From Escherichia coli (GTDB taxonomy: Bacteria; Pseudomonadota; Gammaproteobacteria; Enterobacterales; Enterobacteriaceae), in NCBI RefSeq assembly GCF_003991155.1, contig NZ_CP031293.1: 64,000 bases of DNA. One strand, written 5' to 3'. A program made the translations under genes and the position numbers. The number at the start of each line of letters is the position of its first letter. Position 1 is the first letter of the stretch. The notes beneath the pieces were generated by a model that saw nothing but the letters and a program-made list of their open reading frames with translations, searched no databases and was not told the DNA's origin. This document shows, piece after piece, positions 3,543 through 60,029 of this stretch.

Positions 3543-3824
3543 ATGGCTACCCTCACCACTGGCGTGGTTCTTCTTCGCTGGCAACTTCTTAGTGCCGTAA
3601 TGATGTTTCTGGCCAGCACACTCAACATCCGTTTTCGTCGGTCTGATTATGTCGGGCTTGCAGTGATCAGCAGCGGTCTGGGCGTGGTTTCCGCCTGCTG
3701 GTTCGCAATGGGGTTGCTTGGCATCACAATGGCGGATATCACCGCCATCTGGCACAACATCGAGTCGGTGATGATAGAAGAGATGAATCAGACACCGCCA
3801 CAATGGCCAATGATTTTGACTTGA
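3543..3824 (+). CDS. yjcB: Small inner-membrane protein YjcB
   Basis: ATG at 3543 gives 93 aa, hydrophobic; position between pdeC and ssb. Confidence 0.7.
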   Translation: MATLTTGVVLLRWQLLSAVMMFLASTLNIRFRRSDYVGLAVISSGLGVVSACWFAMGLLGITMADITAIWHNIESVMIEEMNQTPPQWPMILT

Positions 3825-3830
3825 TATGTA

Positions 3831-3860
3831 GAAGCCTCCAAAACGGAGGCTTCTTTTTTA
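3831..3860. terminator. Rho-independent terminator between yjcB and ssb
   Basis: gaagcctcc / ggaggcttc stem followed by a T-run. Confidence 0.8.
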
Positions 3861-3922
3861 TGGCTGGCAGATGCTTTAATCATCCACCTTAAAACAATAT
3901 ACCCTATTGTTTTAAAGACAAA

Positions 3923-4459
3923 TCAGAACGGAATATCGTCATCAAAGTCCATCGGCGGCTCGTTAGACGGCGCTGCCGGAGCGGACTGCTGCGGGCGAGA
4001 CTGCGCGCCGCCGCTGAACTGATTGCCACCCTGCGGCTGCTGAGGCTGACCCCAACCGCCCTGCGGCTGACCACCACCGATATTGCCACCTGCAGGAGCG
4101 CCACCACCCTGACGACCACCCAACATCTGCATGGTGCCGCCAACGTTCACCACGACTTCTGTGGTGTAGCGATCCTGACCGGATTGATCGGTCCATTTGC
4201 GGGTACGCAGCTGACCTTCGATATAAACCTGAGAACCTTTACGCAGATATTCGCTGGCTACTTCTGCCAGTTTGCCGAACAGCACAACGCGGTGCCATTC
4301 AGTCTGCTCTTTCATCTCGCCGGTCGCTTTGTCACGCCAGGATTCGGAAGTAGCCAGCGTAATGTTGGCAACTGCGCCACCATTTGGCATGTAGCGTACT
4401 TCCGGGTCCTGACCCAGATTACCAACGAGAATAACCTTGTTTACGCCTCTGCTGGCCAT
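3923..4459 (-). CDS. ssb: Single-stranded DNA-binding protein SSB
   Basis: 178 aa; OB-fold N-terminus, Gly/Gln/Pro-rich tail ending DFDDDIPF. Confidence 0.97.
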
Positions 4460-4610: not shown

Positions 4611-4630
4611 TACTGTATATTCATTCAGGT
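4611..4630. promoter_or_regulatory. LexA (SOS) box in the ssb-uvrA divergent control region
   Basis: tactgtatattcattcaggt, a CTGT-N8-CAG match to the LexA consensus. Confidence 0.85.
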
Positions 4631-9532: not shown

Positions 9533-10075
9533 ATGGTGACTAATTTTATTACTCTCGAAGGAGATGATGATATGAATATATCATATGTGAATAGCAACAA
9601 AATGACATCTTTACCTGTTGAGCTAGATGCACTAAATAATAAAGATATCTCTTATTCCAAAGATTTTTCTTATGCCAAAGATTTCTTTTTATATATAGAA
9701 ACACAGTTAAAAATTGCAAAAGATTTTTGTAGACCTGGAGAAGAAGTATCAAGTTCTATTGCAAGTACAGTTTTTCATGCATTTATTGATTTAGTTAACA
9801 AAATCAGAGGCAAGAAAGATTGTATGTATATTTGCACACTTTGCTGTTTTGCCGAGGAGGTTAAAGGTGATTATTCTCATTACAGGACCTTTTTATTTGA
9901 TATTGGTAATCAATATAAGGTTAAACTTACACAAAGCGGAAAAAAAGAGTTCTCTTTAACATTAGAATTTAACGATACTATAATTGAATCTCAGAAAGTC
10001 ACAGGCAATAAGGCAAAGCATATTCTTGAGGATATAGAAATATTCTATCGTAACAAACCCGATACTTATTATTAA
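9533..10075 (+). CDS. Hypothetical protein in an AT-rich islet (yjbS locus)
   Basis: 180-aa ORF, Lys/Asn/Ile-rich, in visibly AT-rich sequence between aphA and tyrB; no recognisable domain. Confidence 0.4.
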   Translation: MVTNFITLEGDDDMNISYVNSNKMTSLPVELDALNNKDISYSKDFSYAKDFFLYIETQLKIAKDFCRPGEEVSSSIASTVFHAFIDLVNKIRGKKDCMYICTLCCFAEEVKGDYSHYRTFLFDIGNQYKVKLTQSGKKEFSLTLEFNDTIIESQKVTGNKAKHILEDIEIFYRNKPDTYY

Positions 10076-44795: not shown

Positions 44796-45143
44796 TTACG
44801 AATTACTGCGGCGCTGTTGCTTTTCCGCATGTACGCGTTTCACAATCTTATAAATCCATTGCAGCGTCAGATTATATTTCTTCGCTAATTCGGCGTAGTT
44901 GCGCCCATCGCACTCGCTATAGATTTGGTAGTCACGCTCCGATGCTCGTCCGGAGATCCCCTTAGGGAAATAAATGCTTTGTCCGCCCCAGTTACGCATC
45001 ATTCGGTCGGCAATGGCAAAGCCCACATTTTCTGCCGATGAACTGTCGAGATTGATGCTTTCAATCAGAACTTGCGATGCATGAAAAGCCAGGTCGTTAA
45101 TGATCTCCGGTGTCCGGGCCATCTCTTTTGATTTTCGTATCAT
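44796..45143 (-). CDS. Mor/C-like transcriptional activator (Mu middle/late activator family)
   Basis: 115 aa with C-terminal HTH (ELAKKYNLTLQWIYKIVKR), resembling the Mor/C family; transcribed divergently from the lysis/tail genes. Confidence 0.7.
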   Translation of the reverse strand: MIRKSKEMARTPEIINDLAFHASQVLIESINLDSSSAENVGFAIADRMMRNWGGQSIYFPKGISGRASERDYQIYSECDGRNYAELAKKYNLTLQWIYKIVKRVHAEKQQRRSNS

Positions 45144-45364
45144 TTTTCATCTCCATATATCTTGCATCCTGAATAAGACCCGATGCGTGTAAAACCACGG
45201 ATATACGCTAAGCAGTTGTCATTACTGCTACTCAATACATTCAACAAACAAATAAACAATTAACAAAAATATAAATTTTTAATATTAATGAACGCCATAA
45301 ATTCATGAAATAGATATATTGTTTGCGTTATGTTTCTTGTCAACAGGTGTATCATTTTACACGA

Positions 45365-45384
45365 TACTGTATACACATACAGTA
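45365..45384. promoter_or_regulatory. LexA-box-like palindrome in the island control region
   Basis: tactgtatacacatacagta, a perfect CTGT-N8-ACAG with TA-rich spacer; flanked by the inverted repeat ttttacac / gtgtaaaa. Confidence 0.6.
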
Positions 45385-45680
45385 TTATTTTTACTTGTAG
45401 TGTAAAAAGATCGTTTCCCTCACAGTCGCTGACTTTCTTAAACAAACTTTAAAAATCAAATAACTACTGACTATTCCTACGATTCACCATCATCTTTTCC
45501 CTGCATAATGACGCGCTTATTCGCGAGGTCACCTTTTGCTCTTTAATTGCTGAGTGGATTTATTAGCGGGCATGTTCATTTATAGAGAATCTATTTTTTA
45601 AACTTATTTATTAAAGCTTTTTTCATTCTTCACTGGCGGGTTCTGGCGACACTAAACGCTCACTTATCAGGAGATACCGT

Positions 45681-45968
45681 ATGAAAAAAGTCACTCTTCC
45701 CCGGCTTTCCGGTTGGCTGGTCGCTTCCGTCGCGCTGTTTGTCGTGATCGGCTGGACCTCTTCAGCACAAATCCCGGTCGTCATTTATAAACTAAGCCTG
45801 GTTTCGCTTTCCGCGGTGCTGGGATACTGGCTCGATCGCAGTTTGTTCCCCTGGGCACGGCCTGACTCTTTTTGCCCCTGGAAGGAACCGCGTTGCTGCG
45901 CGGCGGCAATGATTCGCCGGGCTATCATCGTTGCTGCCGTCTGCCTTTCCGTCGCGTTAGGGCTATAG
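45681..45968 (+). CDS. Small membrane protein, putative holin
   Basis: 95 aa with 2-3 predicted TM segments; AGGAGA RBS; first gene of the lysis cassette. Confidence 0.5.
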   Translation: MKKVTLPRLSGWLVASVALFVVIGWTSSAQIPVVIYKLSLVSLSAVLGYWLDRSLFPWARPDSFCPWKEPRCCAAAMIRRAIIVAAVCLSVALGL

Positions 45969-45970
45969 TG

Positions 45971-46576
45971 ATGTGGCTGAAATATATCGCGTCTATGATT
46001 ATTTTCGTTCTTTTCCCACTCAACGCCTCTGAACCGCCGAGAGCCTCTCTGGCATGGCGAAACGAACTAATTCGTACAGCTCGAGAAGTCTGGGGGCTGA
46101 ATGCCCCAGTGGCCGACTTTGCCGGGCAATTACACCAGGAGTCCGCCTGGCAGCCAATGGTACGTTCCCCCGTTGGCGCACAAGGTATGGCGCAATTTAT
46201 GCCTGCTACAGCGACATGGATAAGCCAGTTGTATCCACAATTGCGTGAAAACAAACCGTATAACCCAACCTGGGCGATTCGCGCGCTGGTGCAATATGAC
46301 CAGCATTTGTGGAAAAACATCTCTGCGAAAAATGATTGTCAGCGTATGGCGTTTACCCTAAGCGCCTATAACGGCGGTCAGGGGTGGGTTAACCGGGATA
46401 AAAAACTGGCTGCATCCAAAGGGTTAGATGCCACTAGCTGGTTTGGTCATGTTGAGCAAGTCAACGCCGGGCGCAGCGCCACGAACTGGCGAGAAAATCG
46501 TCGCTATCCAAAGATGATCCTCTATCAACATGCCGCCCGCTATTTACTCTGGGGACAGGCAAGCTGTCTTCATTAA
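45971..46576 (+). CDS. Lytic transglycosylase-type endolysin with N-terminal signal/SAR segment
   Basis: ATG at 45971; hydrophobic N-terminus MWLKYIASMIIFVLFPLNA; SLT-domain catalytic region (LHQESAWQP, AYNGG). Confidence 0.75.
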   Translation: MWLKYIASMIIFVLFPLNASEPPRASLAWRNELIRTAREVWGLNAPVADFAGQLHQESAWQPMVRSPVGAQGMAQFMPATATWISQLYPQLRENKPYNPTWAIRALVQYDQHLWKNISAKNDCQRMAFTLSAYNGGQGWVNRDKKLAASKGLDATSWFGHVEQVNAGRSATNWRENRRYPKMILYQHAARYLLWGQASCLH

Positions 46577-46588
46577 TCAGAGGGGCCG

Positions 46589-46903
46589 ATGAAACTCAGT
46601 ATCGATTTTTGGGAAGTGATCTCCCTTATGCTTTCCTTCGTTGGATTAATGTTTGCTGCCGGAAAACTGCTGTTAGCACAAATTGAAAAACGACTTAATG
46701 AGCGTTTTGAATCTCTGGAAAACGCGCGCCGGGAATCAGAAACAAGTTGGTCGAAACTGGAAAGAGAATTTCTCGAATTTCGTGCCGAGCTTCCGCTGCA
46801 TTATGTCCGCAGAGAAGATTATCTTCGTGGGCAAGCAGTATTAGAAGCGAAGCTGGATGCCTTATATAGCAAAATCGAGCTGTTACAACGTGGCAGTTAT
46901 TGA
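46589..46903 (+). CDS. Spanin-like protein (N-terminal TM plus coiled coil)
   Basis: 104 aa; TM helix then charged coiled-coil region; follows the endolysin. Confidence 0.5.
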   Translation: MKLSIDFWEVISLMLSFVGLMFAAGKLLLAQIEKRLNERFESLENARRESETSWSKLEREFLEFRAELPLHYVRREDYLRGQAVLEAKLDALYSKIELLQRGSY

Positions 46904-46904
46904 A

Positions 46905-46940
46905 AAATCCCCACCCTTATGTAAGGGTGGGGATTTTTTT
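46905..46940 (+). terminator. Strong rho-independent terminator after the lysis cassette
   Basis: aaatccccaccctta / taagggtggggattt 15-bp stem followed by a T-run. Confidence 0.85.
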
Positions 46941-47047
46941 AACCATTCAATTTTTTCTCTAAATCACATTAAAAGATTCTTCACCTTCGCTGCTTCAGAA
47001 TACATTTCAACGATAACGAAGTGAGCGGTAATTAAGGTACAGCCTAT

Positions 47048-47503
47048 ATGGAAATTTTATCTGTAATGAATTCTGTTGTGACCAGATTACGTGAACACAA
47101 CTCCGAAATGGATATATTTATTTCATCTAAGGATGCCCAGAAATATATTCCACAGACACAACGAGTTGCAGTGATTATTAATTATAGCGGTTCTGTCTTT
47201 GCTACGCCCGAAAGCAGTAATGCCATCGTGCAACAGCAAATACTCCGCTTAACCGCCACCGTTATTGTTGGCAAAAATTGTGATGCATTAAACGCACTTG
47301 ATCACATACGCAGCGCATTGGGTGGCCTTCAGCTTCCTGATTGCGATCGTCTTCTTTGGCTTGAAAAAGAAATTAATACGGGTGAGAGCGGCGGTTTCTG
47401 CCGCTACATCCTGGAAATGGCGACCAGCTCGCTATTTATCGCTGAACAGGAAAGCACGGATCTTCCCCTGCTTACGGAAGTTAACTACGAGGAAACTGAA
47501 TGA
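47048..47503 (+). CDS. Tail completion/terminator-like protein (Mu gp37-like)
   Basis: 151 aa immediately upstream of the sheath and tube genes; family call made by sequence recall. Confidence 0.5.
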   Translation: MEILSVMNSVVTRLREHNSEMDIFISSKDAQKYIPQTQRVAVIINYSGSVFATPESSNAIVQQQILRLTATVIVGKNCDALNALDHIRSALGGLQLPDCDRLLWLEKEINTGESGGFCRYILEMATSSLFIAEQESTDLPLLTEVNYEETE

Positions 47504-47697
47504 AATACATCTACAACGGCCCAGCAAGCGGCGTCACCCTTGCCGATGGACAAGAAATCTTATTGTGGCCGAACAGTGAAATTGATCTGCCAGAAGACAA
47601 CGAGTGGGTCATGACCATGATTGCCCGCAATCATCTGACTCCTGTCATCACTCAGGAAGAACAAAATAACGTAGAGGAAATTGTACATGGCAGCTAA
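47500..47697 (+). CDS. Small tail-module protein (Mu gp38-like)
   Basis: 65 aa; ATGA start-stop overlap with the upstream gene. Confidence 0.45.
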   Translation: MKYIYNGPASGVTLADGQEILLWPNSEIDLPEDNEWVMTMIARNHLTPVITQEEQNNVEEIVHGS

Positions 47698-49111
47698 TTA
47701 TCTGCACGGTGTAGAAACTATTGAAATTGAAACCGGCCCGCGTCCGGTTAAAGCGGTAAAATCCGCCGTCATCGCTTTAATCGGTACAGCCCCCTGCGGT
47801 CCGGTAAATAAACCAACATTATGCCTTTCTGAAAGCGATGCTGCGCAGTTTGGCTCGACTCAGGCTAACTTTACGATCCCACAGGCACTGAAGGCAATTT
47901 ATGACCACGGTGCCGGTACGGTGGTGGTGATTAACGTGCTGGATCCGGCAAAACATGGCTCCAACATCAGCAATGAGAGTATCACTTTTGATGCTAACAA
48001 CCAGGCGAAGCTCGCTCACCGCAATGTGCGTAACGTGGTACTAAAGCCCTCTTCATCAAATTCATCAACCTTTAACACCGCAGCATTTAGCGTAGATGAA
48101 CAAACAGGCATAATTACCCGTAAAGGAGCCGACATTCCTCCTGGTGCGAAAGTTTGTGCCTATTATTCCTGGTGCGACCCTACAAAGGTCACCGCAGCCG
48201 ATATTATCGGTACCGTAAATACCGCAGGCGACCGCACGGGGATGAAACTGCTACAGGACACCTATAACCTGTATGGTTTCTACGCCAAAATCCTGCTTGC
48301 TCCCGTGTTCTGTACGCAAAAATCAGTAACTACAGAGCTGATTGCACAAGCGGAAAAACTTGGTGCGATTACCTACATTGATGCCCCGATTGGGACGACA
48401 TTCCAGCAGGTATTGGCAGGACGCGGTTCGCAAGGGGCTATCAACTTCAACACCAGCTCTGATCGTGCGCGTTTATGTTACCCACACGTCAAAGTTTACG
48501 ATGGCATCACTAACCAGGAAGTTCTCGAACCGCTCTCTTCGCGCGCTGCCGGGCTACGTGCCAAAGTAGACCTCGAAAAAGGTTTCTGGTGGAGCAACTC
48601 AAACCAAGAAATTCAGGGTATTACCGGTATTGAACGTTCGCTTTCCGCAATGATTGATGATCCACAAAGCGAAGTGAATCAGCTAAACGAAAACGGCATT
48701 ACCACTATTTTCAATAGTTACGGCTCTGGTCTGCGCTTGTGGGGCAACCGCACTGCAGCGTGGCCTACCGTGACCCATATGCGTAACTTTGAAAACGTCC
48801 GCCGGACAGGCGATGTAATTAATGAGTCAATCCGTTATTTCAGTCAGCAGTATATTGATATGCCGATTAATCAGGCGCTGATTGATGCCCTGACCGAATC
48901 GGTAAATACCTGGGGCCGTAAGCTGATTGCCGACGGCGCACTGCTTGGCTTTGAATGCTGGTACGATCCGGCGCGAAATTCACCGACTGAACTCAGCGCT
49001 GGGCATTTATTGCTGAGCTATAAATTCACCCCACCGCCGCCGCTGGAACGTCTGACGTTTGAAACTGAAATTACTTCTGAATATTTAGTCTCTCTGGAGA
49101 GCAATAGCTAA
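47687..49111 (+). CDS. Contractile tail sheath protein
   Basis: About 474 aa from the ATG at 47687 (track start 47681 is TTG); GAGGAAA RBS; followed by the tube gene. Confidence 0.85.
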   Translation: MAANYLHGVETIEIETGPRPVKAVKSAVIALIGTAPCGPVNKPTLCLSESDAAQFGSTQANFTIPQALKAIYDHGAGTVVVINVLDPAKHGSNISNESITFDANNQAKLAHRNVRNVVLKPSSSNSSTFNTAAFSVDEQTGIITRKGADIPPGAKVCAYYSWCDPTKVTAADIIGTVNTAGDRTGMKLLQDTYNLYGFYAKILLAPVFCTQKSVTTELIAQAEKLGAITYIDAPIGTTFQQVLAGRGSQGAINFNTSSDRARLCYPHVKVYDGITNQEVLEPLSSRAAGLRAKVDLEKGFWWSNSNQEIQGITGIERSLSAMIDDPQSEVNQLNENGITTIFNSYGSGLRLWGNRTAAWPTVTHMRNFENVRRTGDVINESIRYFSQQYIDMPINQALIDALTESVNTWGRKLIADGALLGFECWYDPARNSPTELSAGHLLLSYKFTPPPPLERLTFETEITSEYLVSLESNS

Positions 49112-49635
49112 TGGCTGGAAAAATTCAAATTAACCGTATTACCAACGCCAATATTTATCTCGATGGTAATAACCTTTTAGGTCGTGCAACCGAAATTAAA
49201 TTGCCGGATGTCAGTTTAATTATGCAGGAGCATAAAGCACTGGGCATGGTGGGTAAAATCGAACTCCCGGCGGGTTTCGATAAACTGGAGGGCGAAATTA
49301 AATGGAACTCCTTCTATCAGGACGTAATGCGTAAAACGGCAAACCCGTGGCAGGCGGTTGCATTACAGTGCCGCTCCAGTATTGATTGCTATAACTCCCA
49401 GGGGAAAGCGAATCAATTAGCGCTAGTGACACATTTAACCGTGATGTTTAAAAAGAATCCACTGGGCACATTTAAACAGAATGAAAACCCGGAATTCAGC
49501 AGCGCCTTTGGTTGCACTTATATTAAACAAGTAGTTGATGGTGAAACGCTGCTTGAACTTGATTATATGGCCAATATTTTCCGGGTTAATGGTGTGGATC
49601 AATTAAGTACCTATCGCAATAACATCGGTGGCTAA
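49111..49635 (+). CDS. Tail tube protein (P2 FII-like)
   Basis: 174 aa; ATG overlaps the sheath stop; resembles P2 FII-type tube proteins. Confidence 0.8.
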   Translation: MAGKIQINRITNANIYLDGNNLLGRATEIKLPDVSLIMQEHKALGMVGKIELPAGFDKLEGEIKWNSFYQDVMRKTANPWQAVALQCRSSIDCYNSQGKANQLALVTHLTVMFKKNPLGTFKQNENPEFSSAFGCTYIKQVVDGETLLELDYMANIFRVNGVDQLSTYRNNIGG

Positions 49636-49639
49636 GTTA

Positions 49640-49660
49640 TTCGGGGCTACGGCCCCGAAC
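49640..49660 (+). other. Intra-operon hairpin after the tube gene (possible attenuator)
   Basis: ttcggggc / gccccgaa stem with no following T-run. Confidence 0.4.
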
Positions 49661-49685
49661 TTTGCAAAATAAATAAGGACACAAA

Positions 49686-50003
49686 ATGAAAGAACATTAT
49701 ATCTTACAGTTCCCGTTTACTTCAGCGGCGGGAGACGTAATTAACACTCTGCAATTACGTCGCCTGAAAGTAAAAGATATGCGCAACGCGCGCCGGATCA
49801 GCGAAAAACCTGAAGAGTGGGATGAACCGCTAATGGCGGCAATGACCGGACTGGTGCCAGAAGATTTAGCTGAAATGGATTTGCTGGATTACCAGGCATT
49901 GCAGAAACGATTTCAATCCATGCTTAGCGTGGCTACAGAATCCGCCACTGTTATGGCAAGCGATGGCGTTACTGGCGAGATGGTTTCGCTTTCCACCCAG
50001 TGA
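49686..50003 (+). CDS. Tail assembly chaperone (gpE/gp41-like)
   Basis: 105-aa acidic protein directly upstream of the tape measure gene. Confidence 0.65.
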   Translation: MKEHYILQFPFTSAAGDVINTLQLRRLKVKDMRNARRISEKPEEWDEPLMAAMTGLVPEDLAEMDLLDYQALQKRFQSMLSVATESATVMASDGVTGEMVSLSTQ

Positions 50004-50192
50004 GATAGACGCCCTTACCGTCGATGACTTTAGCAACTGGCTGGATGAAGCCAGCGCCCAAATAAAAATCGAATATGACTCGCAGACCTGATGTCTGCGA
50101 GTTTCCCAAGCCCGTCAGGTTTATTTCTTCCCTGCCCCTTTTTTTAGAAAAATAACCAGCGGGCCATTATCAATATTTAAAGAGAAACAATT

Positions 50193-52568
50193 TTGGCCAA
50201 CGATATTATTACCCAGCTTCAGGCGCGTAATGAGACGTTGACGCAGGCAATAGCCCGTTACGGCTCACTCAACGCCAGAACATTGTTAACTCTCTCTACT
50301 CAGCAGGCGACAGTTATCAAACTAACGCAGCAGCTTGCCGATTCCGCTCTCCGCCTGGAGGAAAATAGCCGCAGCCGCGCTAATCTGATGGAGAAAACCC
50401 AAACATTTGCCGGGCAATTTAGCAAAGTATTCAATGTTGAAGCCCCCGACTGGAAGTTGCCGTATGAGTTTCAGGACAACATGGTCAATATGGCGACCAA
50501 AGGTGGGATGAATGCTACAACCCGCGAGACGCTCAGCCTTAATCTGCGCGACTGGAGCATGGATTTTAACCAGCAGCAGACCACCTTACAGAACGCAGCC
50601 CAAACGCTGATCGAAGGCAATTTGTCGTCGATACAGGATCTCAACCGTTATATGCCGGAGATCGCCAAAGCTGCCACCGCCACGCGCGAAAGTGCTGAAA
50701 CATGGGCGAATGCCGCGCTCGCAACCCATGATCGACTGAATATTGCCCCGGAAAATTTCCACGCCGCGCAAAACATGATGTACGGCATTAGCAAAAGCGG
50801 TGGGCCTGCCATTGCTGAACAAACGCAGTGGATAGAGAAATTTGCAGGTAAAACCGGCGCTCAGGGTCTGGAAGGTATGGCTGAACTGACCGCCACCATG
50901 CAGATCGCCATGAAAAACGGGGCCAGCGCCAGTGCGGCGGCGGAGAATTTCGACCACTTTCTGCAAACCACCTTTTCGAAAAAAACCGATTACTGGTTCG
51001 TCAGCCAGGGCGTTGATCTGCAAGGCTCTCTGCTTGAGCATCAGCAAAACGGTATGGGTGTTAGCGAAGCCATGACTCATATCGTGCAAATGCAGCTTGA
51101 GAAGATGAATCCGGCGATCCTCGACACCTTCAAACGCACCATGCAGATCGAAGATTTATCTGCCCGCAGCAATGCGCTGCAATCGATGGTGACGCAGTTT
51201 AATCTGGGGGAAATGTTCGGCGATGCGCAAACAGTGGAATTCCTGGCCCCTATGCTGGCGAATATGGAGGAATATCGCCAGTTAAAAGCCTCTGCCATGC
51301 AAGCCACCAGCAAGAATCTGATTGATGCCGACTTTTCTGCGCAAATGGCCTCGCCCATTGAACAGACTAAAGCGTTACAGCTGGCGTTAAATGATTTATG
51401 GCTCAGCATTGGCTTGCAATTAATGCCGCTGATTGGCGAGCTGGCACAAAGCCTTACGCCGGTTATTCGTCAGTTCAGCGCCTGGCTACGTGAGCACCCG
51501 ACACTGGTGCAAAACATCGCGAAAATCGTCGGGGCGATTTGGCTGTTTAACGGTGCGCTGAATGTTTTAAAGCTGGGCGCGAACCTCATCACCTCGCCGT
51601 TTATTCGTCTGGTCGATATCTTCCTGAAAGTCAAGGCAAGTCTGGCGCTCACAGGCGGGGCAAGTAAGATGCTATCAGCGGTTAAGTCATTGGGTGGCGG
51701 CGCAAAATGGCTAACGCAACTGCTTGGTCGTGGCCTGATTGGAACATTGAAACTGGTTGGTCGGACCGTTCTCTCACTAGGCCGGGTGCTACTGATGAAT
51801 CCCATTGGTCTGGTCATCACTGCGATTGCGGGCGCTGCTTATCTGATTTATCGCAACTGGGAGCCTATCTCCAGGTTCTTTTCGACCATCTGGCAACGTA
51901 TCACCACGGCCTTTGACGGCGGCATTGCAGGAATTTGTCGGTTGATTCTCGACTGGTCACCGCTGGAGTTGTTCTATAGCGCCTTTTCCAGTGTGATGAA
52001 TTGGTTTGGTGTCGAGATGCCTGCAAGTTTTAGCGAGTTCGGCAGCAATCTTCTGGGCAGTCTGGTTGACGGCATAATGAATGCCTTCCCCGCTCTGAAA
52101 GGCATTATTGATCAGGTAAAAAACGCCATCCCAGACTGGCTAAAAACCACGATGGGTATTAGTACAGAAGGATCGGCTACAGCTATTACAAGCACGACTA
52201 ATACCGCATCCGTCTCCCCCGCGACCGTTGTTCCAGGCGTTGCCGGTGCGATTTTAACGCCGCCGGTGGGCAAACAACTCGCGCCATCCGGCAAAACGGC
52301 TACGCCGTCATCGGCGCCAGCGGCAAAAAATACAGCCGCCAAACCCGTATCTGCCTCTTTACCTGGTAAATCCGTAACCAAAGCGGCGACGCTACCTTCC
52401 CGTTCCTCAGGAAAAGTTCAGGTGAATTTTTCGCCACAAATTACCGTGCAGGGTAACGGACAAAACACCACTAAAGAGATTCAGAACGTGTTGACGATGA
52501 GTAAACGCGAACTGGAAAGAATGATTAACGATGTAATGGCGCAGCAGCAGCGCCGGGGGTATGCCTAA
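50193..52568 (+). CDS. Tail tape measure protein
   Basis: 791 aa, largely alpha-helical, hydrophobic central segments, Ala/Pro/Ser/Thr-rich C-terminal region; track start is TTG. Confidence 0.85.
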   Translation: MANDIITQLQARNETLTQAIARYGSLNARTLLTLSTQQATVIKLTQQLADSALRLEENSRSRANLMEKTQTFAGQFSKVFNVEAPDWKLPYEFQDNMVNMATKGGMNATTRETLSLNLRDWSMDFNQQQTTLQNAAQTLIEGNLSSIQDLNRYMPEIAKAATATRESAETWANAALATHDRLNIAPENFHAAQNMMYGISKSGGPAIAEQTQWIEKFAGKTGAQGLEGMAELTATMQIAMKNGASASAAAENFDHFLQTTFSKKTDYWFVSQGVDLQGSLLEHQQNGMGVSEAMTHIVQMQLEKMNPAILDTFKRTMQIEDLSARSNALQSMVTQFNLGEMFGDAQTVEFLAPMLANMEEYRQLKASAMQATSKNLIDADFSAQMASPIEQTKALQLALNDLWLSIGLQLMPLIGELAQSLTPVIRQFSAWLREHPTLVQNIAKIVGAIWLFNGALNVLKLGANLITSPFIRLVDIFLKVKASLALTGGASKMLSAVKSLGGGAKWLTQLLGRGLIGTLKLVGRTVLSLGRVLLMNPIGLVITAIAGAAYLIYRNWEPISRFFSTIWQRITTAFDGGIAGICRLILDWSPLELFYSAFSSVMNWFGVEMPASFSEFGSNLLGSLVDGIMNAFPALKGIIDQVKNAIPDWLKTTMGISTEGSATAITSTTNTASVSPATVVPGVAGAILTPPVGKQLAPSGKTATPSSAPAAKNTAAKPVSASLPGKSVTKAATLPSRSSGKVQVNFSPQITVQGNGQNTTKEIQNVLTMSKRELERMINDVMAQQQRRGYA

Positions 52569-53521
52569 TGTATGCCGTTTTAGGAGAGATTGAATTTAAG
52601 GTTGTCACATTCTGGGACGGCTTTAAAAGCACAATGGGCGTGGATTACGCCACACATGCCCGTATAGAAGGCAAACCCGGCGTGCAGTTTATTGGCGATA
52701 AGCTGGATATGCTGGCGCTGGAATTTTCCCTGCACAGCCAGTTTTGCCAGCCCACAACAGAGCTGAACCGACTGCGTGAAGCCATGCTTGCTCACAAGGC
52801 GATGGCACTGGTATTTGGCAATGGCGATTATCGCGGCTGGTTTGTGATTACGGAGCTAACCGCCACCCACCAGCACACCGATCCCTGGGGCAATGTGATT
52901 GCCCAAAACGGAACGATGTCGCTCCAGGAGTACACCGGCGATCCTAAAAATCCACTTTTACCTCCGGCGATTACCACCCAGGAGCCCAACATCGAGGAAA
53001 AGGCGAGCGATTTTCCCGACAAGGTGGAGTCCTGGTTTGATCAGATATTAAACGCCATTGAAGAAGGTATGCGTAAGGCCAAAGAGATGCTGGATGAACT
53101 GACACAATCCATTGAAGATATTAAAAAAACGGTGGCAAAAGTGAAAGCAATGATTAAAGAGGCCAAAGCGTTAAAAGAAAAGTGTGAAAAGATAATTACG
53201 TCATTGAAAAAGACAATCGACGCCATCGAAACCCTGTTTAAACAGCCAATGGATCTGCAAACGCTGGCAGGCCTACCAAAAGCGTTGTCGGCGCAGATTA
53301 AAGCTTTACTGGGTAACATGCCAGGTATCCGGGACTGCGCCAATGACGCCAGTACGCTGGTTGACCATGCTCAGGCGCTTTTCGACGACATTACCAGCGA
53401 CATCGCCGAAGCGACGTTCGATAAAGCCACGTCGTTGGTTGAGCAGGCACGTACAACGGTACAACAAACCACTCCCGCAGTGAGCCAGCTTGCTGCCGTA
53501 ACCATTACCAGGAGCTGGTAA
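52568..53521 (+). CDS. Tail protein, gpU / DNA-circulation N-terminal-domain-like, with coiled-coil C-terminal extension
   Basis: N-terminal 140 aa resemble P2 gpU / Mu gpN N-domain; C-terminal half is Lys/Glu-rich coiled coil. Confidence 0.6.
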   Translation: MYAVLGEIEFKVVTFWDGFKSTMGVDYATHARIEGKPGVQFIGDKLDMLALEFSLHSQFCQPTTELNRLREAMLAHKAMALVFGNGDYRGWFVITELTATHQHTDPWGNVIAQNGTMSLQEYTGDPKNPLLPPAITTQEPNIEEKASDFPDKVESWFDQILNAIEEGMRKAKEMLDELTQSIEDIKKTVAKVKAMIKEAKALKEKCEKIITSLKKTIDAIETLFKQPMDLQTLAGLPKALSAQIKALLGNMPGIRDCANDASTLVDHAQALFDDITSDIAEATFDKATSLVEQARTTVQQTTPAVSQLAAVTITRSW

Positions 53522-53730
53522 TGCGATACCTTGAACATATCACCACCGATGGCGAACGCTGGGATAACCTGGCATGGCATTACTACGGTGATGCGCTGGC
53601 TTATGAACGCATAATCGCCGCCAATCCACATGTAGCCATTTACCCGGTACTGCCTTCCGGTATTCAGCTCATTATTCCGGTCATTTCCGTTAATAAAACC
53701 TTATCGGAGATCCCACCATGGCTGAGATGA
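53521..53730 (+). CDS. Tail protein X-like (LysM-like)
   Basis: 69 aa with the DxWDxLAxxYYGD...ANP pattern typical of P2 gpX. Confidence 0.65.
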   Translation: MRYLEHITTDGERWDNLAWHYYGDALAYERIIAANPHVAIYPVLPSGIQLIIPVISVNKTLSEIPPWLR

Positions 53731-54758
53731 GCGTAACTGGTGGCGTCTTTGCCACACTCACGCCCATTTTTACCCTCTGGTATGGGCATAAAGATATCAC
53801 TTATGACATCACACCCTATGTCACCAGCATCAGTTACCACGACAGCATCAAAAACGAGTCGGATACCATCGCAATTACACTGGATGACACAGATGGACGC
53901 TGGATAAAAGAGTGGTATCCCGGCAAAGGCGATACGCTGGCGCTGCATATAGGTTATCAGGGGGAAAAGCTGCTCGATTGTGGCCAGTATATTATTGATA
54001 AAATTGATATTTCAGCGCCACCTTCCACGGTAAATATTGATGGCATCGCCACTTCCGTCAATCAGGCGCTGCGCACCCGTAACAGCCAGGGCTTTGAAGA
54101 AACGACGCTTTCGGCGATCGCCAGCCGTATTGCCCAAACGCACGGTCTGAAACTGGTGGGCAAAATCGAGTCGCTCACCATCGACCGGGTAACGCAGTAT
54201 GGTGAAACCGATGTCGGATTTCTCAAACGTCTGGCCAGTGAATATGGTTATGCCGTAAAAGTGACGACAAAAGAGCTGATTTTTTCACATTTACCCACGC
54301 TGCGCTGCCTGACGCCTGTGAAAAAGATCGATCGCAAAGAGGTTTCTCATTTTACCTTCAAAGACACCATTAACCGGATCTACAAGAACGCCACCGTACA
54401 GCATCAAAATAGTAAGAAAAAAGAACTGGTTATCTACACTCACAACAGCCAGCAAAAACCATCTGTCCGTGGAGTCGGCACTAGTGCCGACACGCTAAAA
54501 CTGAACAGTCGGGCGACGGACGTTGGCGCAGCACAGGCAAAGGCTAACGCTGCACTCGACAGCCACAACGAATATCAGCAAACCGGAACGCTCACAATGA
54601 TGGGCTGCCCGGAACTGACGGCGGGCAATAAAATTGAACTGACCGATTTTGGCGTGATTTCCGGTCAGTGGCTGATTGATAAATCTACTCACAGTTTTGT
54701 GCGCAGCGGCTATACCACTGAAATCGACGTGTCACGCGGGCCAGCGACCAGCCAGTAA
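53718..54758 (+). CDS. Tail/baseplate hub protein (P2 gpD / Mu gpP-like)
   Basis: 346 aa following gpU-like and gpX-like genes. Confidence 0.65.
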   Translation: MAEMSVTGGVFATLTPIFTLWYGHKDITYDITPYVTSISYHDSIKNESDTIAITLDDTDGRWIKEWYPGKGDTLALHIGYQGEKLLDCGQYIIDKIDISAPPSTVNIDGIATSVNQALRTRNSQGFEETTLSAIASRIAQTHGLKLVGKIESLTIDRVTQYGETDVGFLKRLASEYGYAVKVTTKELIFSHLPTLRCLTPVKKIDRKEVSHFTFKDTINRIYKNATVQHQNSKKKELVIYTHNSQQKPSVRGVGTSADTLKLNSRATDVGAAQAKANAALDSHNEYQQTGTLTMMGCPELTAGNKIELTDFGVISGQWLIDKSTHSFVRSGYTTEIDVSRGPATSQ

Positions 54759-54767
54759 GGAGGAAAT

Positions 54768-55469
54768 ATGAAAGGAGTAACCCGTCAAACGGGGATTATC
54801 AGCGATATTGACGAAACCAGTGTTCGGGTACGGGTCACTCTACCAGAGTGTGACAATCTGAAGAGCAACTGGCTTGCGGTACTTCAACGCAATTCCCAGG
54901 ACAATAAAGACTACTGGCTACCGGATATGGGCGAGCAAGTGGAAGTTCTGCTGGACGATAACGGTGAAGATGGCGTGGTGCTGGGTGCCGTTTATTCTAC
55001 GGTTGACACCGCGCCTGTAGCCTCGCGCGACAAACGTTACGTCCAGTTTTCTGATGGCGCAGCGTTTGAATATGACCGCAGCACGCACCAGCTGACGATT
55101 AACGGCGGTATCGAGAAAATCGTGATTGAGGTTATCGACAGCACCCGCCTGACATCGCCCAACGTTGAGATTAAAGCCCAACACGTCACCGTGACTTCCG
55201 ATACCGTCGATGTTAAAGCGACCGATGTCAGCATCGACGCCACTAAGGTCGAGGTTAAAGCAGCAGCAGTGACGGTAGATGCGCCCATGAGCACCTTTAC
55301 TGGCAACGTCACGGTAATGAAAAAACTCACCTGGCTTGGCGGGATGGCAGGAAGTGGAGGCATCGGTAACGCAGCCACGATAACCGGCAATGTCAACGTG
55401 ATCGGCAACGTTCAGGCCAGCGGCGCATTGCAGGACAGCGGTGGCAACTCCAACCACCATTCACACTGA
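54768..55469 (+). CDS. Baseplate central spike protein (gpV-like)
   Basis: 233 aa; beta-rich repeats (VEIKAQHVTVTSDTVDVKATDVSIDATKVEVKAAAVTVDA); C-terminal HHSH. Confidence 0.75.
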   Translation: MKGVTRQTGIISDIDETSVRVRVTLPECDNLKSNWLAVLQRNSQDNKDYWLPDMGEQVEVLLDDNGEDGVVLGAVYSTVDTAPVASRDKRYVQFSDGAAFEYDRSTHQLTINGGIEKIVIEVIDSTRLTSPNVEIKAQHVTVTSDTVDVKATDVSIDATKVEVKAAAVTVDAPMSTFTGNVTVMKKLTWLGGMAGSGGIGNAATITGNVNVIGNVQASGALQDSGGNSNHHSH

Positions 55470-55567
55470 CTTTTAACCCGCCTGATGGCGGGTTTTCTCT
55501 TTTTAATCAATCAGTTTTCTAAATCGCTTTAATATCTCCACAGCCCGTTCAGGGCGAAAATACCCTC

Positions 55568-55927
55568 ATGAACACAAAAACACGCCCCTCAACGCTGCAC
55601 TGGCAACCGGCCTTGCAGCGGCCTGAAGAATACGTCTGCGGGCTGGATGATATTCACCAGGCAATACACATCATTCTGCGTACACCGCGCGGCAGTGATC
55701 CCCACAGACCGCTGTTTGGCAGCAACTTGTGGCACTACATCGATTACCCCATCGAGCGGGCTATCCCGCATGTGGTACGGGAGTCGGTGGAAGCCATCCG
55801 CCAGTGGGAACCGCGCTGTCGGTTGCTGAAGGTGACACCAGTAATCGACGGCGAACATCTGACGTTACGTGTGCAATGGCGCGCCGCTGACGGCGTTATC
55901 AACTCAACGGAGGTGTTATGGCGATAG
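55568..55927 (+). CDS. Baseplate wedge protein (GPW/gp25 lysozyme-like family)
   Basis: 119 aa with family-typical GxDxxxAIHIIL...GSxPxRPxFGS pattern. Confidence 0.75.
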   Translation: MNTKTRPSTLHWQPALQRPEEYVCGLDDIHQAIHIILRTPRGSDPHRPLFGSNLWHYIDYPIERAIPHVVRESVEAIRQWEPRCRLLKVTPVIDGEHLTLRVQWRAADGVINSTEVLWR

Positions 55928-57033
55928 CCGAACCCAATTTTATTGACCGCGATCCTGCGCAAATTACCAGTGAGATGATTGCGCAATACGAAGATGCCAG
56001 TGGTAAAAAACTCTATCCGGCACAGGCTGAGCGGTTGCTCATCGACCTGTTTGCCTATCGTGAAAACCTTGTACGCATCGCCATTCAGGAAGCGGCGAAA
56101 CAAAACCTGGTCGCGTATTCCCGCGCGCCAATGCTGGATTATTTAGGGGAGTTGGTGGGAGTTCACCGTTTGCCTGCGCAGCCTGCAAAAACGACGTTGC
56201 AGTTTTCGGTCGTTAGTGCGTATCCCGGCAATATCCTGATTCCCCAGGGGACGCGGGCCAGTGCCTCTGATAGCGTGATGTTCGCCACCGATGAAGATGT
56301 TCTGCTTCCGGCCAGGAGTTTGCATATCGCCGTTCCTGCCACCAGCCTCGCAGCAGGTGAACAGGGTAACGGCTGGCAGCCTGCACAAATTAGCGCACTG
56401 GTCGACAGGATTGGTCATTATGACATCAACGTAACCAACCTGACTGCGTCAACGGGCGGCTGCGGTGAAGAGAGCGATGACGCATTGCGCCAGCGTATCC
56501 AACTGGCACCAGAAAGCTTTAGTAATGCGGGCAGCTATGGTGCCTACCGCTTTCATACGCTTTCTGTTAGCCAGTCGATTATTGACGTTGCAGTACTGGG
56601 GCCGGACGAGGGATTGCCAGAAGGCTGCGTGGAGATCTACCCGCTAACCCTGAATGGTCTACCCGGCACGGAGTTGCTGGCGCAGATTGAACAAGAAGTC
56701 AGCAAGGAGAAAAAACGACCGCTGACCGACAAAGTGAGTGCGAAATGCGCTCTTCGAGTGCCGTATGAGATCCGTGCGCAGCTAATGCTGTTTACCACCG
56801 CCGATCAGGAGACAACGCTGGCTGCGGCGCGTAAAGCGATTAGCCTCTGGACGCAACAGCGGCAGAAACATCTGGGGCAGGACATTGTGCCAAACCAGAT
56901 AATCAAAGTGTTACAGGTCGATGGCGTCTATGACGTTGCGCTGAATATGCCTACAAAACGTATTTTGCAGGCGCATGAATGGGCGGAATGCACTGCAATA
57001 GACGTCACGATTGCCGGAGTCAGCGATGGATAA
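55918..57033 (+). CDS. Baseplate J-like protein
   Basis: 371 aa; start overlaps the gpW-like stop. Confidence 0.75.
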   Translation: MAIAEPNFIDRDPAQITSEMIAQYEDASGKKLYPAQAERLLIDLFAYRENLVRIAIQEAAKQNLVAYSRAPMLDYLGELVGVHRLPAQPAKTTLQFSVVSAYPGNILIPQGTRASASDSVMFATDEDVLLPARSLHIAVPATSLAAGEQGNGWQPAQISALVDRIGHYDINVTNLTASTGGCGEESDDALRQRIQLAPESFSNAGSYGAYRFHTLSVSQSIIDVAVLGPDEGLPEGCVEIYPLTLNGLPGTELLAQIEQEVSKEKKRPLTDKVSAKCALRVPYEIRAQLMLFTTADQETTLAAARKAISLWTQQRQKHLGQDIVPNQIIKVLQVDGVYDVALNMPTKRILQAHEWAECTAIDVTIAGVSDG

Positions 57034-57742
57034 ATTGCTGCCACCGCCGCCGCTTGCCAGCGATGAGCGTTTTTCGATTCTGGCAAACATCGCCGCCGAG
57101 CGTTTTGCCCAACTCGATCTGACGGCGTTGATGGTTTATCTGGTCGACCTGGTTGATGCTTCGGCATTACCAGCCCTTGCAGAACAATTTCACGTTCAGG
57201 GGCTGGAAGGTTGGTTATTTACCACCGATGAGCGGGAGAAACGCGAGTTAATTAAACAAGCCATTGAACTGCATAAATATAAAGGAACAATTTGGGCGGT
57301 ACGGCGAGTGCTGGAAATACTTTCCTTACCCGGAACTATTTCAGAATGGTTTGAATATGGGGGAAGGGCTTATTTTTTTAAGGTAAATATTACACTAGAG
57401 GAAAAAGGATTAAATGAAGATGAATTCAATGCACTTATCACATTAATTCATGAATATAAAAATGTTCGTTCAAAGCTGGAAAGCATTGTTATTTGGCTTA
57501 TTAATCGAAGCCCAATACCAGTTATTGGCAGCGCCATGCAAGGAGGGGAAGTCATTACAGTATTGCCTCCTGTTGCAGAAAGCCTCAGCCAGTCATCAGG
57601 AATATTTTTAGCGACGGGTTATTGTGTGGAGGAATATATCCAACTACTACCTTATCAACCCGATCGCCTTACACAATCCCAACCGATGAAGGTCGGCACA
57701 GGATACTGGAGCACCGAAATTATGTCTGTATATCCGGAGTAA
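57026..57742 (+). CDS. Tail protein I-like (baseplate wedge)
   Basis: ATG at 57026 overlapping the J stop (track start 57011 is TTG); about 238 aa. Confidence 0.65.
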
Positions 57743-57744
57743 TA

Positions 57745-59325
57745 ATGGCAAGTGAATTTTTTACAATATTAACTGCTGCAGGCAAAGCCAAAATTGCCTC
57801 AGCACTGGCCGAGCAAAAACAGATCCGTCTGCAAACTATGGTAGTTGGCGACGGTAATGGTAAATATATCGAACCGACAGAAAGTCAGACCAAAGTAGTC
57901 CATGAGGTCTGGCGTGGTCAGCTCAATACATTAAAAATTGCGCCAGATAATCCGGCCTGGGTTATCGCAGAAGCGATTATTCCCGAACAAGTCGGAGGCT
58001 GGTATGTACGCGAAGTTGGGTTACTGGATACCGACGGCACGCTGGTCGCTATTGGTAAATTCCCGGAAACCTATAAGCCACGATTACCTGCGGGGGCCAG
58101 TAAGCAAATCGTTATACGCGCGGTCATGGAAGTCACCAATGCAGACGCGGTGACGCTTTTGATCGACCCTTCAGTCGTTGTGGCAACCAGGGAATATGTC
58201 GATGACGCGTTGAAAACACATCAGCAATCACGAAATCATCCTGATGCGACGCTGACACAAAAAGGTTTTACGCAGCTCAGTAATGCAACTAATAGCGATG
58301 ATGAGACTAAAGCAGCCACGCCAAAAGCGGTAAAAACGGCATATGACCTGGCAAATAGCAAAGCCGCAACCAGTCATACTCATGCCTGGAATCAGATTAC
58401 TGGTATCCCTGACGGTACACTGACGCAGAAAGGAGTCGTTAAACTTAACAACACAACAAATAGCACCAGTACAACGGAAGCTGCAACGCCAAGTGCGGTT
58501 AAAGCAGCGATGGACAAGGCTATTGCTGCGGCGCCGTCCAGCCATACCCATGCCTGGGGGCAAATAACAGGTATCCCCGACGGTACGCTGACACAAAAAG
58601 GGGTCGTGAAACTTAATAATGCGACCAACAGCACCAGTACGACGGAAGCTGCGACGCCGAACGCGGTTAAGGCAGCGATGGATAAGGCTATTGCTGCGGA
58701 AAGCTGTCCTGTTGGGATGCCTATTCCCTGGCCATCTGATTCTGTACCTTCAGGCTACGCTCTGATGACAGGTCAGACATTTAATAAAACCTCCTATCCC
58801 AAACTGGCAATTGCATATCCATCTGGTGTTATTCCTGATATGCGCGGATGGATAATTAAAGGAAAACCATCCAGTGGGCGCGCTATATTATCTACTGAAC
58901 TGGATGGAGTTAAATCACATAACCATACGGGCAGTATTTCGAGTACTGATTTAGGGACGAAAACCACACCCCTCACAGACTTGGGGACTAAAACTGCATC
59001 ATCATTTAACCATGGAAATAAAACAACAAGTTCATCTGGCTCAGGCTCGGCAACTGCAACAGTAAGAACAGGGACATCTTCACCAGAGGGCCAAGGCGAC
59101 TGGACATCATATGGCCCTGGTACCGGATCATCTTTGGCAATTAATGTTCCATCACACGTTCATAGTGTTACAATTGGTTCCCATTCGCACACTGTTGCGC
59201 TCGGCACCCATTCGCATTCAATTGCACTTGGTTCCCATAACCACTCCCTAACCATTAATAATACCGGCAGCACCGAAAACACCGTCAAAAATATCGCATT
59301 CAACTATATTGTGAGGCTAGCATGA
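57745..59325 (+). CDS. Tail fiber protein with tandem fiber repeats and His-rich C-terminal tip
   Basis: ATG at 57745 in frame with the track ORF; three tandem 56-aa repeats; C-terminal HxH motifs (SHSHT, THSHS, SHNHS) and [11 protein letters not shown] end. Confidence 0.85.
58246..58700 (+). repeat. Tandem 168-bp direct repeats inside the tail fiber gene
   Basis: Repeat units begin at about 58246, 58414 and 58582; units 2 and 3 are near-identical at the DNA level. Confidence 0.8.
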
Positions 59326-60029
59326 ATACTTTTACCTTTTCTGATGAAGCTCAAATACTAACTGTATATAATTTTTCACAAGACTCCCAAGAATATATCG
59401 GTGAGTCTGATGCATACATTGCACCTAATACAGGCTTGCCAAATTATTGCACATTAATTTCACCTCCCGAAAAGGCTCCTGGTTTTACTCCAGTGTGGGA
59501 GAATGAAACATGGAGACTTATTGAAGATCATCGAGGCCAAACTGTTTATAACAAAGTTGATGGTAGCCAGCTTATTATTCAAGAATTGGGCCAATTACCT
59601 GAAAATGTAACAGTCATTTCCCCGACAGGTTCTTTTGAACGTTGGGATGGTGAAAAATGGCAACCATCTATAACCGATGCTAAAGAGGCGAAATACTCTG
59701 CAATCAAAAATCAACGCGATGCCATCACAACCGATTACATCATCATCAACAACCATCACTTCCACAGTGATACAAATAGCCGTATCCAACAGCTTTCACT
59801 CACAAAAATGGGAGCGGAGAAAAAAATTCCGCCAGGGTTAATGTGGAAAACTAAAAATAATGGTCTGATTGAGTTAACCAACGAAATCGCTGCCCAGTTT
59901 GAATCGGTCACCATGGATCACGATATGCGCTTGTTCGCAAACGCCCAGCGTCATATCGCGGCGGTGGAAGCACTGGACGATATTCAGGCGGTGCTCGACT
60001 ACGATTATTCAACAGGCTGGCAACCATGA
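59322..60029 (+). CDS. Tail fiber assembly protein (chaperone)
   Basis: 235 aa; ATGA overlap with the fiber stop. Confidence 0.7.

Follow-up and report, generated by a model that had tools for sequence, protein, structure and literature searches.

How are contractile-tail genes switched on when the putative activator gene beside them is transcribed away from them? This question is raised by an island in the chromosome of Escherichia coli, which we analysed in a window of 64,000 nucleotides (the whole stretch of DNA studied) with the gene order ssb-uvrA ... dinF-lexA ... pgi-lysC, island, yjbD-rluF. A gene for a Mor-like protein, hereafter mor, adjoins lysC on one side and a control region on the other, and is divergent from genes for a holin, an SLT endolysin and a membrane protein; beyond these lies a full complement of contractile-tail genes. 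The initial annotation had placed an activator directly before the lysis and tail genes on the opposite strand, and all of these elements were found where it had put them, well past what chance would give. Taking the sequence comparisons together, we lean towards a model in which the island is a domesticated tailocin derived from a phage like BcepMu of Burkholderia, with LexA controlling mor, Mor activating three late promoters, and lysis releasing the particles.

According to this model, the 537-bp control region of an undamaged cell would have host LexA bound at its one near-consensus SOS box. DNA damage would lead to cleavage of LexA, and the promoters over the box would fire, including one directed towards mor. 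This is the weakest step of the model; it rests on a conserved mor-facing -10 hexamer, TAAAAT, and on the need to keep a lethal lysis activator off. Mor would then act on TTAAA-N4-TTTAA boxes at about -49 to -34 and recruit sigma-70 RNA polymerase, as Mor and C of phage Mu do, at three promoters that we call Plys, Ptail and P3. The conserved architecture and position of these sites and the co-conservation of the Mor recognition helix are the grounds for this step. Tail particles would be assembled and then released through lysis by the holin and the transglycosylase. The Mor/C-type late activator would be the sole regulator kept from the phage.

The Mor-like activator and its phage ancestry

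44796..45143, minus strand: mor-like gene, encoding a 115-residue Mor/C-family activator of the BcepMu gp01 type

The profile search for the Mor family, by which the initial annotation had let its assignment stand or fall, was positive: residues 10-112 of the 115-residue mor product matched Pfam Mor (PF08765) with E 7.9e-38 in a scan of Pfam-A. The product also matched PHROG 532, "late transcriptional activator" (1.2e-35), and the solved structures of Mu Mor (chain 1rr7, 5e-8) and Mu C (chain 9l0x, 7e-5), and it is identical to the RefSeq entry WP_000619864.1, annotated as "Mor transcription activator family protein". Besides Mor, the Pfam-A scan returned three weak generic helix-turn-helix matches and no PrtN-type domain. 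Both hallmarks of the family are present, namely a GG..Y.P beta-linker and a C-terminal helix-turn-helix with a conserved tyrosine, and residues G53, G54, Y58, P60 and Y98 were invariant in an alignment with Mu Mor, Mu C and BcepMu gp01. Of these, Y58, P60 and Y98 correspond to the beta-linker and helix-turn-helix residues Y75, P77 and Y115 of Mu C, which were reported to be essential in a 2025 cryo-electron microscopy preprint (10.1101/2025.05.02.651988). The matches to Pfam, PHROG and the structure chains, together with the invariant residues, bear out the assignment to the Mor/C family.

BcepMu gp01 and the mor product share 49% identity, and the recognition helix (T/S)LQWIYKI, with the core LQWIYKI, is the same in these two proteins and differs in Mu Mor and Mu C. 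The ratio of nonsynonymous to synonymous substitution rates (dN/dS) of mor was 0.03-0.08 where dS was computable, most pairs being saturated (dS > 1 or not computable). The comparison indicates that mor is under strong purifying selection.

The genes on the other side of the control region are as follows.

45681..46903, plus strand: lysis cassette of holin, SLT endolysin and gp25-like membrane protein, assigned by PHROG and identity to BcepMu
45681-45968, plus strand: holin (PHROG holin, 1e-35)
45971-46576, plus strand: SLT endolysin, a lytic transglycosylase (PHROG endolysin, 2e-61)
46589-46903, plus strand: membrane protein resembling BcepMu gp25
47048..55469, plus strand: tail genes (gp37-like, sheath, tube, chaperone, tape measure, gpU, gpX, gpD, gpV), from annotation and collinearity with BcepMu gp37-gp48
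55568..60481, plus strand: baseplate W, J and I, tail fibre and accessory genes, from annotation and comparison with BcepMu

All 17 island proteins from mor to gpI (17/17) matched BcepMu in the same order in a tblastn search. Their counterparts are gp01 (Mor), gp21 (holin), gp22 (SLT), gp25 and then gp37-gp51, with identities of 61% for gp21, 55% for gp22, 46% for gp25, 71% for the sheath and 69% for the tube. BcepMu gp02-gp20 (transposase, early genes and cI-type repressor) and gp26-gp36 (terminase, portal and head) are without counterpart in the island, no head, transposase or integrase gene is annotated in it, and the annotation holds no repressor gene between lysC and yjbD. The gene content is that by which R-type tailocins are defined: a complete contractile-tail set and a lysis cassette, without genes for heads, replication, transposition or integration. 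Since the counterparts of gp02-gp20 and gp26-gp36 are absent and no integrase or transposase is annotated, we conclude from the gene content that the island is a head-less, non-mobile derivative of a BcepMu-like phage and, by that definition, an R-type tailocin. Every tail open reading frame (ORF) in the window is open, including that of the tape measure (50193-52568, TTG start), which RefSeq flags with an "internal stop" in strain 2016C-3878.

The orientation of mor can be read from the same comparison. The early operon of BcepMu, gp16 to gp01, ends in the Mor homologue and is divergent from the direction that runs from cI through holin, SLT and heads to tails. Deletion of the early genes and the repressor from this order would leave mor back to back with the lysis cassette, as in the window. 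That mor is transcribed away from the genes it would activate had been singled out as a peculiarity; judged against BcepMu, which already has the same orientation, it is inherited gene order and no regulatory oddity.

The control region was found in 196 of 5426 complete E. coli genomes (188 with a longer query; about 3.5%), on the chromosome in all of them. The layout of lysC followed by mor and the divergent holin gene also occurs in Phytobacter massiliensis, two Superficieibacter species, Enterobacter hormaechei and one metagenomic lineage, and is shared by two more metagenomic lineages, L062 and L066. At the right end of the E. coli island, before yjbD, a nucleotidyltransferase-domain gene and a slipin-family gene form a convergent pair (60496-62420, minus strand), neither of which matched the PADLOC defence-system models.

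A separate observation concerns Salmonella enterica (L011 and L012), in which an intact orphan mor (L011 1298-1645; 89% identical; 332 member sequences) lies beside lysC. This locus has lost the LexA box together with the lysis and tail genes, and a hexapeptide-transferase-like gene is found instead. Lineage L066 and the error-ridden L017 look like relatives of the Salmonella type in which the full cluster is still present. It is possible that the orphan mor has been recruited to the regulation of host genes.

The predicted late promoters and a candidate Mor box

45598..45653, plus strand: Plys; box A at 45598-45613, box B TTAAAGCTTTTTTCAT at 45611-45626, -10 GACACT at 45648-45653
46959..47001, plus strand: Ptail; box CTAAATCACATTAAAA at 46959-46974, an exact match to the pattern, -10 CAGAAT at 46996-47001
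55519..55561, plus strand: P3; box CTAAATCGCTTTAATA at 55519-55534, an exact match, -10 GAAAAT at 55556-55561, 6 nt to the ATG of gpW
46902..46942, plus strand: intrinsic terminator past the lysis cassette; folding free energy (dG) -28.3 kcal/mol, z -6.0, followed by a T-run; kept in orthologues
55475..55505, plus strand: intrinsic terminator past gpV; dG -15.3 kcal/mol, z -4.9, followed by a T-run

The palindrome TTAAA-N4-TTTAA lies ahead of the lysis, tail and baseplate operons of the island, and late operons of BcepMu and of four related elements have it too. Its only two exact matches (YTAAANNNNWTTAAWA) in the 64 kb start at 46959 and 55519, each just past an intrinsic terminator. Box A of Plys fits the pattern with one mismatch, and boxes A and B make up a 24-nt block that is invariant across genera. 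In BcepMu, with a guanine-plus-cytosine (GC) content of 63%, matches with at most two mismatches were found only before the genes for the holin (gp21), a head protein (gp32) and a baseplate protein (gp49); two matches with at most one mismatch were observed, as compared to 0.03 expected from Markov simulations. The boxes of L021, a second tailocin lineage whose gpW is 78% identical, precede the holin, gp37, chaperone and gpW genes, and the best matches in BcepMu-like prophages of Dickeya and Xenorhabdus lie before the tail-chaperone and gpW genes. The box before gp37 was present in all four of the other lysC-locus lineages examined (Phytobacter, Superficieibacter, E. hormaechei and L015).

A hexamer of the form nAnnnT begins exactly 37 nt from the box start at 17 of the 18 late-operon sites, taken from nine genomes; each of the other offsets between 20 and 59 was seen at no more than 3 of the 18. 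This register suggests that the box lies at about -49 to -34 of promoters that have a -10 and lack a -35. In Mu, Mor or C binds weak promoters as a tetramer that covers about 26 bp and adjoins the -35 position on its upstream side (10.1101/2025.05.02.651988). Activators of this family form dimers or tetramers and touch the C-terminal domain of the RNA polymerase alpha subunit and region 4 of sigma. The recognition helix common to the mor product and BcepMu gp01 fits a shared box that Mu does not use. On the strength of these sequence patterns, it is probable that Mor activates Plys, Ptail and P3. Thus, of the cascade proposed in the initial annotation, the part in which the activator acts on the lysis and tail promoters is well supported by the conserved box, the +37 hexamer and the shared helix, all by inference; the part in which LexA acts on the activator is not, as described below.

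The box, spacing and -10-N6-ATG layout of P3 are repeated in L021, Dickeya, Xenorhabdus and BcepMu. The ATG of gpW lies exactly 6 nt past the -10 in five genomes (window 55556-55570; L021, L022 and L023 at about 9989-10003; BcepMu 30811-30825), a layout that predicts a conserved leaderless gpW mRNA. Expression of gpW from such an mRNA is possible. The head promoter of BcepMu, ahead of gp32, has a layout similar to that of the gpW promoter.

Two further candidates were discarded. A box also lies ahead of the tail-chaperone gene in L021, Dickeya and Xenorhabdus, but such a fourth box is absent from the window, where that place holds only a hairpin; stable hairpin structure (dG -19.9) was noted between the tube and chaperone genes (49636-49685, 50092-50192). 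An apparent co-variation of GATTAG in both promoters of E. hormaechei was dropped, as it is not in register.

The control region and its LexA box

45144..45680, no strand: divergent AT-rich control region of 537 bp, 33.5% GC as compared to 49.8% for the window
45365..45384, no strand: LexA (SOS) box TACTGTATACACATACAGTA, matching the consensus at 18 of 20 positions

The shared AT-rich region of some 540 bp with a LexA-like box, as described in the initial annotation, was confirmed by these measurements. Relative to the E. coli operator consensus (CTGT-N8-ACAG, or TACTGTATATATATACAGTA), both mismatches of the box TACTGTATACACATACAGTA fall in the non-critical centre. A relaxed scan across the entire 64 kb, requiring at least 7 of 8 core positions and at least 13 of 20 overall, returned four sites only: one at uvrA/ssb (4611), two at lexA (21515 and 21536), and the site at 45365-45384, which was the best of the four. 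Since the scan otherwise returns genuine SOS operators alone, it carries a clean internal positive control. The host lexA gene itself (20900-21508; operators 21515-21555) is encoded 24 kb from the island, and the uvrA/ssb SOS box spans 4611-4630.

Alignments of the control region (A1, A2 and A4) displayed conserved islands amid otherwise saturated sequence. The LexA box is kept in six lineages (Phytobacter, two Superficieibacter, L062, L066 and E. coli); because synonymous sites in mor are saturated between lineages, such conservation of non-coding blocks carries weight. Alleles from E. coli differ at 32 of the 537 positions, and within the LexA box only two central spacer positions vary. Thus, the LexA site itself is strongly supported by its sequence, and we infer that LexA binds to it. 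SOS control of the locus is very likely.

The candidate promoters that overlap the box point in opposite directions.

45356..45383, plus strand: promoter-like TTTACA-16-TACAGT, directed towards the holin gene and overlapping the LexA box, 9 of 12 consensus positions
45354..45382, minus strand: alternative promoter directed towards mor, with a conserved -10 TAAAAT at 45354-45359 and a -35 CTGTAT at 45377-45382, inside the LexA box

Their direction was assessed from a consensus scan, a position weight matrix (PWM) scan of seven orthologues, three further loci, polymorphism within species and lineages from a metagenome pattern scan. The holin-directed TTTACA-16-TACAGT was the best or second-best PWM match, at about 9 bits, in every lineage that bears the box. 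The mor-directed alternative scored only about 5.5 bits, and its -35, CTGTAT, agrees with the consensus at 2 of 6 positions. An invariant decamer left of the box, CATTTTACAC, holds both the rightward -35 and, on the opposite strand, the leftward -10 TAAAAT, and is thus compatible with either direction. Further candidates directed towards mor, at a distance of 50-90 nt from the box, lack conservation: TTATCA-16-TATAAT in Superficieibacter (10 of 12) and TTCATG-16-TAATAT in E. coli (8 of 12), the -35 of the latter being polymorphic among alleles. Promoter-like matches in the AT-rich control DNA were no commoner than in shuffled sequence.

Several other features of the control region were recorded. 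The insertion sequence (IS) ISKox3, of the ISL3 family, lies in the exact centre of the LexA box (45371-45378; target duplication ATACACAT) in about 11 of the 196 island-positive genomes, where it separates the LexA half-sites and both candidate promoters; one of these strains, CREC-544 (L026), also has a frameshifted sheath gene. In E. hormaechei (L013 and L014, region 3496-4000), the LexA box is lost and the upstream Plys block is changed, and the locus may be differently regulated or decaying. All seven lineages of alignment A2, with Salmonella and E. hormaechei among them, share an unchanged AAnACAT island at 45232-45239, some 90 nt ahead of the start codon of mor; at this position L066, from a later alignment, reads AATATAT. 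The first 100 nt upstream of mor are free of polymorphism among E. coli alleles, and positions 45245-45348 are hypervariable.

45438..45454, no strand: box-like palindrome with a 5-nt spacer (TTAAA-CAAAC-TTTAAAA), without a -10 hexamer at +37

E. coli, L062, L066 and Phytobacter all keep this palindrome, and E. hormaechei has a variant form. The palindrome lies within a block of about 60 nt at 45403-45460 (AAAAAGATCGTTTCCCTCAC ... TTAAACAAACTTTAAAAATCAA), which is kept in the same four lineages and partly in E. hormaechei, and it could be a regulatory site for Mor. A second LexA box near mor, at 45223, was rejected with a core match of 6 of 8 and no likeness to LexA sites in other lineages. 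The stretch from the LexA box to Plys varies in both length and sequence, which led us to reject a conserved small ORF or a structured leader there as well. No Rfam family was found inside the control region, the sub-threshold matches all falling on the terminator hairpin at about 46900.

The proposed cascade, its rivals and known systems

The claim that LexA represses the activator is the part of the initial annotation that fared worst, since the best conserved promoter over the box faces the holin gene and the mor-directed one has a -35 of 2/6. These two facts, that the sole conserved high-scoring sigma-70 match over the LexA box is holin-directed and that the opposing candidate has so poor a -35, count against the proposed cascade, as do the following. 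The mor-directed promoter-like site of Superficieibacter, with its 10 of 12 positions, lies about 50 nt outside the box. E. hormaechei is without the LexA box, yet has seemingly intact tail ORFs and a Mor with 90% identity. At Plys, the box in register with the -10, namely box B, is degenerate in its second half, and the better box A, 13 nt upstream, is without a -10 in register. The box pattern was derived from the sites of E. coli and L021, which leaves the matches in BcepMu, Dickeya and Xenorhabdus and the +37 hexamer as independent tests. Finally, pseudogene flags are found on the tape measure gene of one strain and on the sheath gene of a second.

We nevertheless favour LexA control of mor, because an activator that also drives the holin promoter must stay off and no other operator is visible, because a hairpin resembling a terminator separates the rightward promoter from Plys in loci of the Superficieibacter type, and because the approximately 200 nt between these two promoters are unconserved. 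These considerations give a guarded preference to the view that LexA directly controls mor.

The most serious rival takes the conserved rightward promoter at face value. LexA would gate TTTACA-16-TACAGT and thereby the holin and endolysin genes, and mor would be expressed from a separate promoter subject to some other input, such as H-NS silencing, growth phase or autoregulation, so that a cell would decide separately on tail synthesis, through Mor, and on lysis, through LexA, or would join the two in one AND gate. This is consistent with the rightward promoter being the only 9/12 match over the box and being kept in every box-bearing lineage, with the lack of a predicted terminator between it and the holin gene in E. 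coli and Phytobacter, with the strong terminator that parts the lysis from the tail genes, and with the mor-directed promoter-like sites outside the box in Superficieibacter and E. coli. However, Plys shares its box and -10 architecture with Ptail and P3, so that Mor should trigger lysis too, and an unrepressed mor would be hard to tolerate. The hairpin of Superficieibacter-type loci and the unconserved spacer, which also varies in length, argue in the same direction, the proximal -35 candidate of E. coli varies among alleles, and promoter-like matches occur at chance level. We therefore regard this rival as rather unlikely. The specific statement that the SOS box gates the rightward lysis transcript and not mor, with mor answering to a second input, possibly through the block at 45403-45460, is in our view unlikely.

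A second rival concerns the boxes themselves, which might be UP elements or sites for IHF, Fis or H-NS, with the late operons expressed from ordinary promoters or by read-through and Mor dispensable or acting elsewhere. The boxes are A/T-rich and lie at -65 to -34, where the C-terminal domain of the RNA polymerase alpha subunit binds UP elements, and box B of Plys is degenerate. However, the box takes the specific form of a 5+5 palindrome around a G/C-rich spacer, it stands out at the starts of late operons in the 63%-GC genome of BcepMu, and it accompanies Mor homologues with one common recognition helix. In addition, the promoters are without a -35, and the terminators ahead of Ptail and P3 argue against simple read-through. 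This explanation is improbable.

Equally improbable is that the island is a decaying cryptic prophage remnant in which mor is a relic or has been co-opted elsewhere, as the orphan mor beside lysC without tail genes in Salmonella enterica, the pseudogene flags on tape measure and sheath in some strains, the IS-split LexA box in about 11 genomes and the loss of the box in E. hormaechei might suggest, given that the tail ORFs in the window are all open, that mor appears to be under strong purifying selection, and that the locus has been kept across genera with saturated synonymous sites, along with the LexA box and all three promoter boxes.

If the favoured cascade of LexA, Mor and late promoters is correct, some strains of E. 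coli, Enterobacter, Phytobacter and Superficieibacter hold an SOS-inducible tailocin derived from BcepMu, and its entire late programme depends on one small activator and three recognisable promoters. This compact regulon, with one LexA box and three candidate Mor boxes, would offer a handle on particle production, for example expression of mor to make tailocins as precision antibacterials. It would also supply the BcepMu branch of the Mor/C family with a candidate motif for DNA recognition, of which the searchable literature has no description, and it would illustrate a route from phage to weapon in which early genes and heads were deleted, the late activator was kept and the top switch was handed to a host repressor. 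Literature searches combining tailocin with Mor, lysC or BcepMu returned no description of the E. coli locus or its regulator. The published "tailocin" of E. coli ST131 (PMC9205054) was considered as the same element and rejected, being a different element of the P2/R2-pyocin type, and papers on Burkholderia BceTMilo, P. syringae syringacin and Dickeya P2D1 mention no involvement of Mor.

Mor/C activators and SOS-inducible R-type tailocins are known kinds; what is new is this member, the candidate Mor box and the three-promoter regulon. Current ideas are not overturned, and the logic parallels that of PrtR/PrtN and RdgA/RdgB. In the R and F pyocins of Pseudomonas aeruginosa, as cited in PMC12297226, damage removes the repressor PrtR and the small activator PrtN turns on tail and lysis genes. 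The likeness to PrtN that the initial annotation had drawn thus holds for the logic of the circuit and not for homology: PrtN is not a member of the Mor family, the Pfam-A scan gave no PrtN-type domain, and BcepMu gp01, Mu Mor and C, and also RdgB of Pectobacterium, are closer. PrtR is moreover a dedicated LexA-like repressor, whereas the island would use LexA of the host.

With Mor and C of phage Mu, the mor product shares the Pfam family and the residues that define the fold, in the GG..Y.P beta-linker and the C-terminal helix-turn-helix with its tyrosine. It would also act in the same way, at a dyad placed just upstream of or across the -35 of promoters that lack one, and on several late promoters including one for lysis. 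It differs in having 24-25% identity to the Mu proteins, a different recognition helix and a different DNA box. The Mu regulators also form a two-step cascade, Mor and then C, on one strand and not controlled by LexA, whereas the island has a single activator. With BcepMu gp01 the likeness extends to the recognition-helix core, the orientation relative to the holin, SLT and tail genes, the collinear cluster and the late-operon box. The gp01 gene is the last of an early operon of about 9 kb under a cI-type repressor of the phage; unlike BcepMu, the island is without early, repressor and head genes, and has a host LexA box in a shortened control region.

A further parallel is provided by RdgA and RdgB of Pectobacterium, which have also been tied to carotovoricin. 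The damage-inducible pectin lyase circuit of Pectobacterium carotovorum (Liu et al. 1994, as cited in PMC7843439) reportedly includes a Mor-like RdgB, and a homologue of the BcepMu type in phage phiE255 is annotated as "DNA-binding protein RdgB". Compared by description only, RdgB differs in having a dedicated, RecA-cleavable cI/LexA-like repressor, RdgA, encoded beside it, and the island has no such gene. L021, finally, has the same four late boxes, and its contig ends before any mor gene. At 1-460 this contig carries the 3' end of a gene resembling a cI-type repressor (...DWLLTGRG...), upstream of and co-oriented with the holin gene, and no LexA box. The cI-like end in L021 and the LexA box in the island, each with the same late boxes, suggest that the top-level switch is interchangeable and that the layer of Mor boxes is constant.

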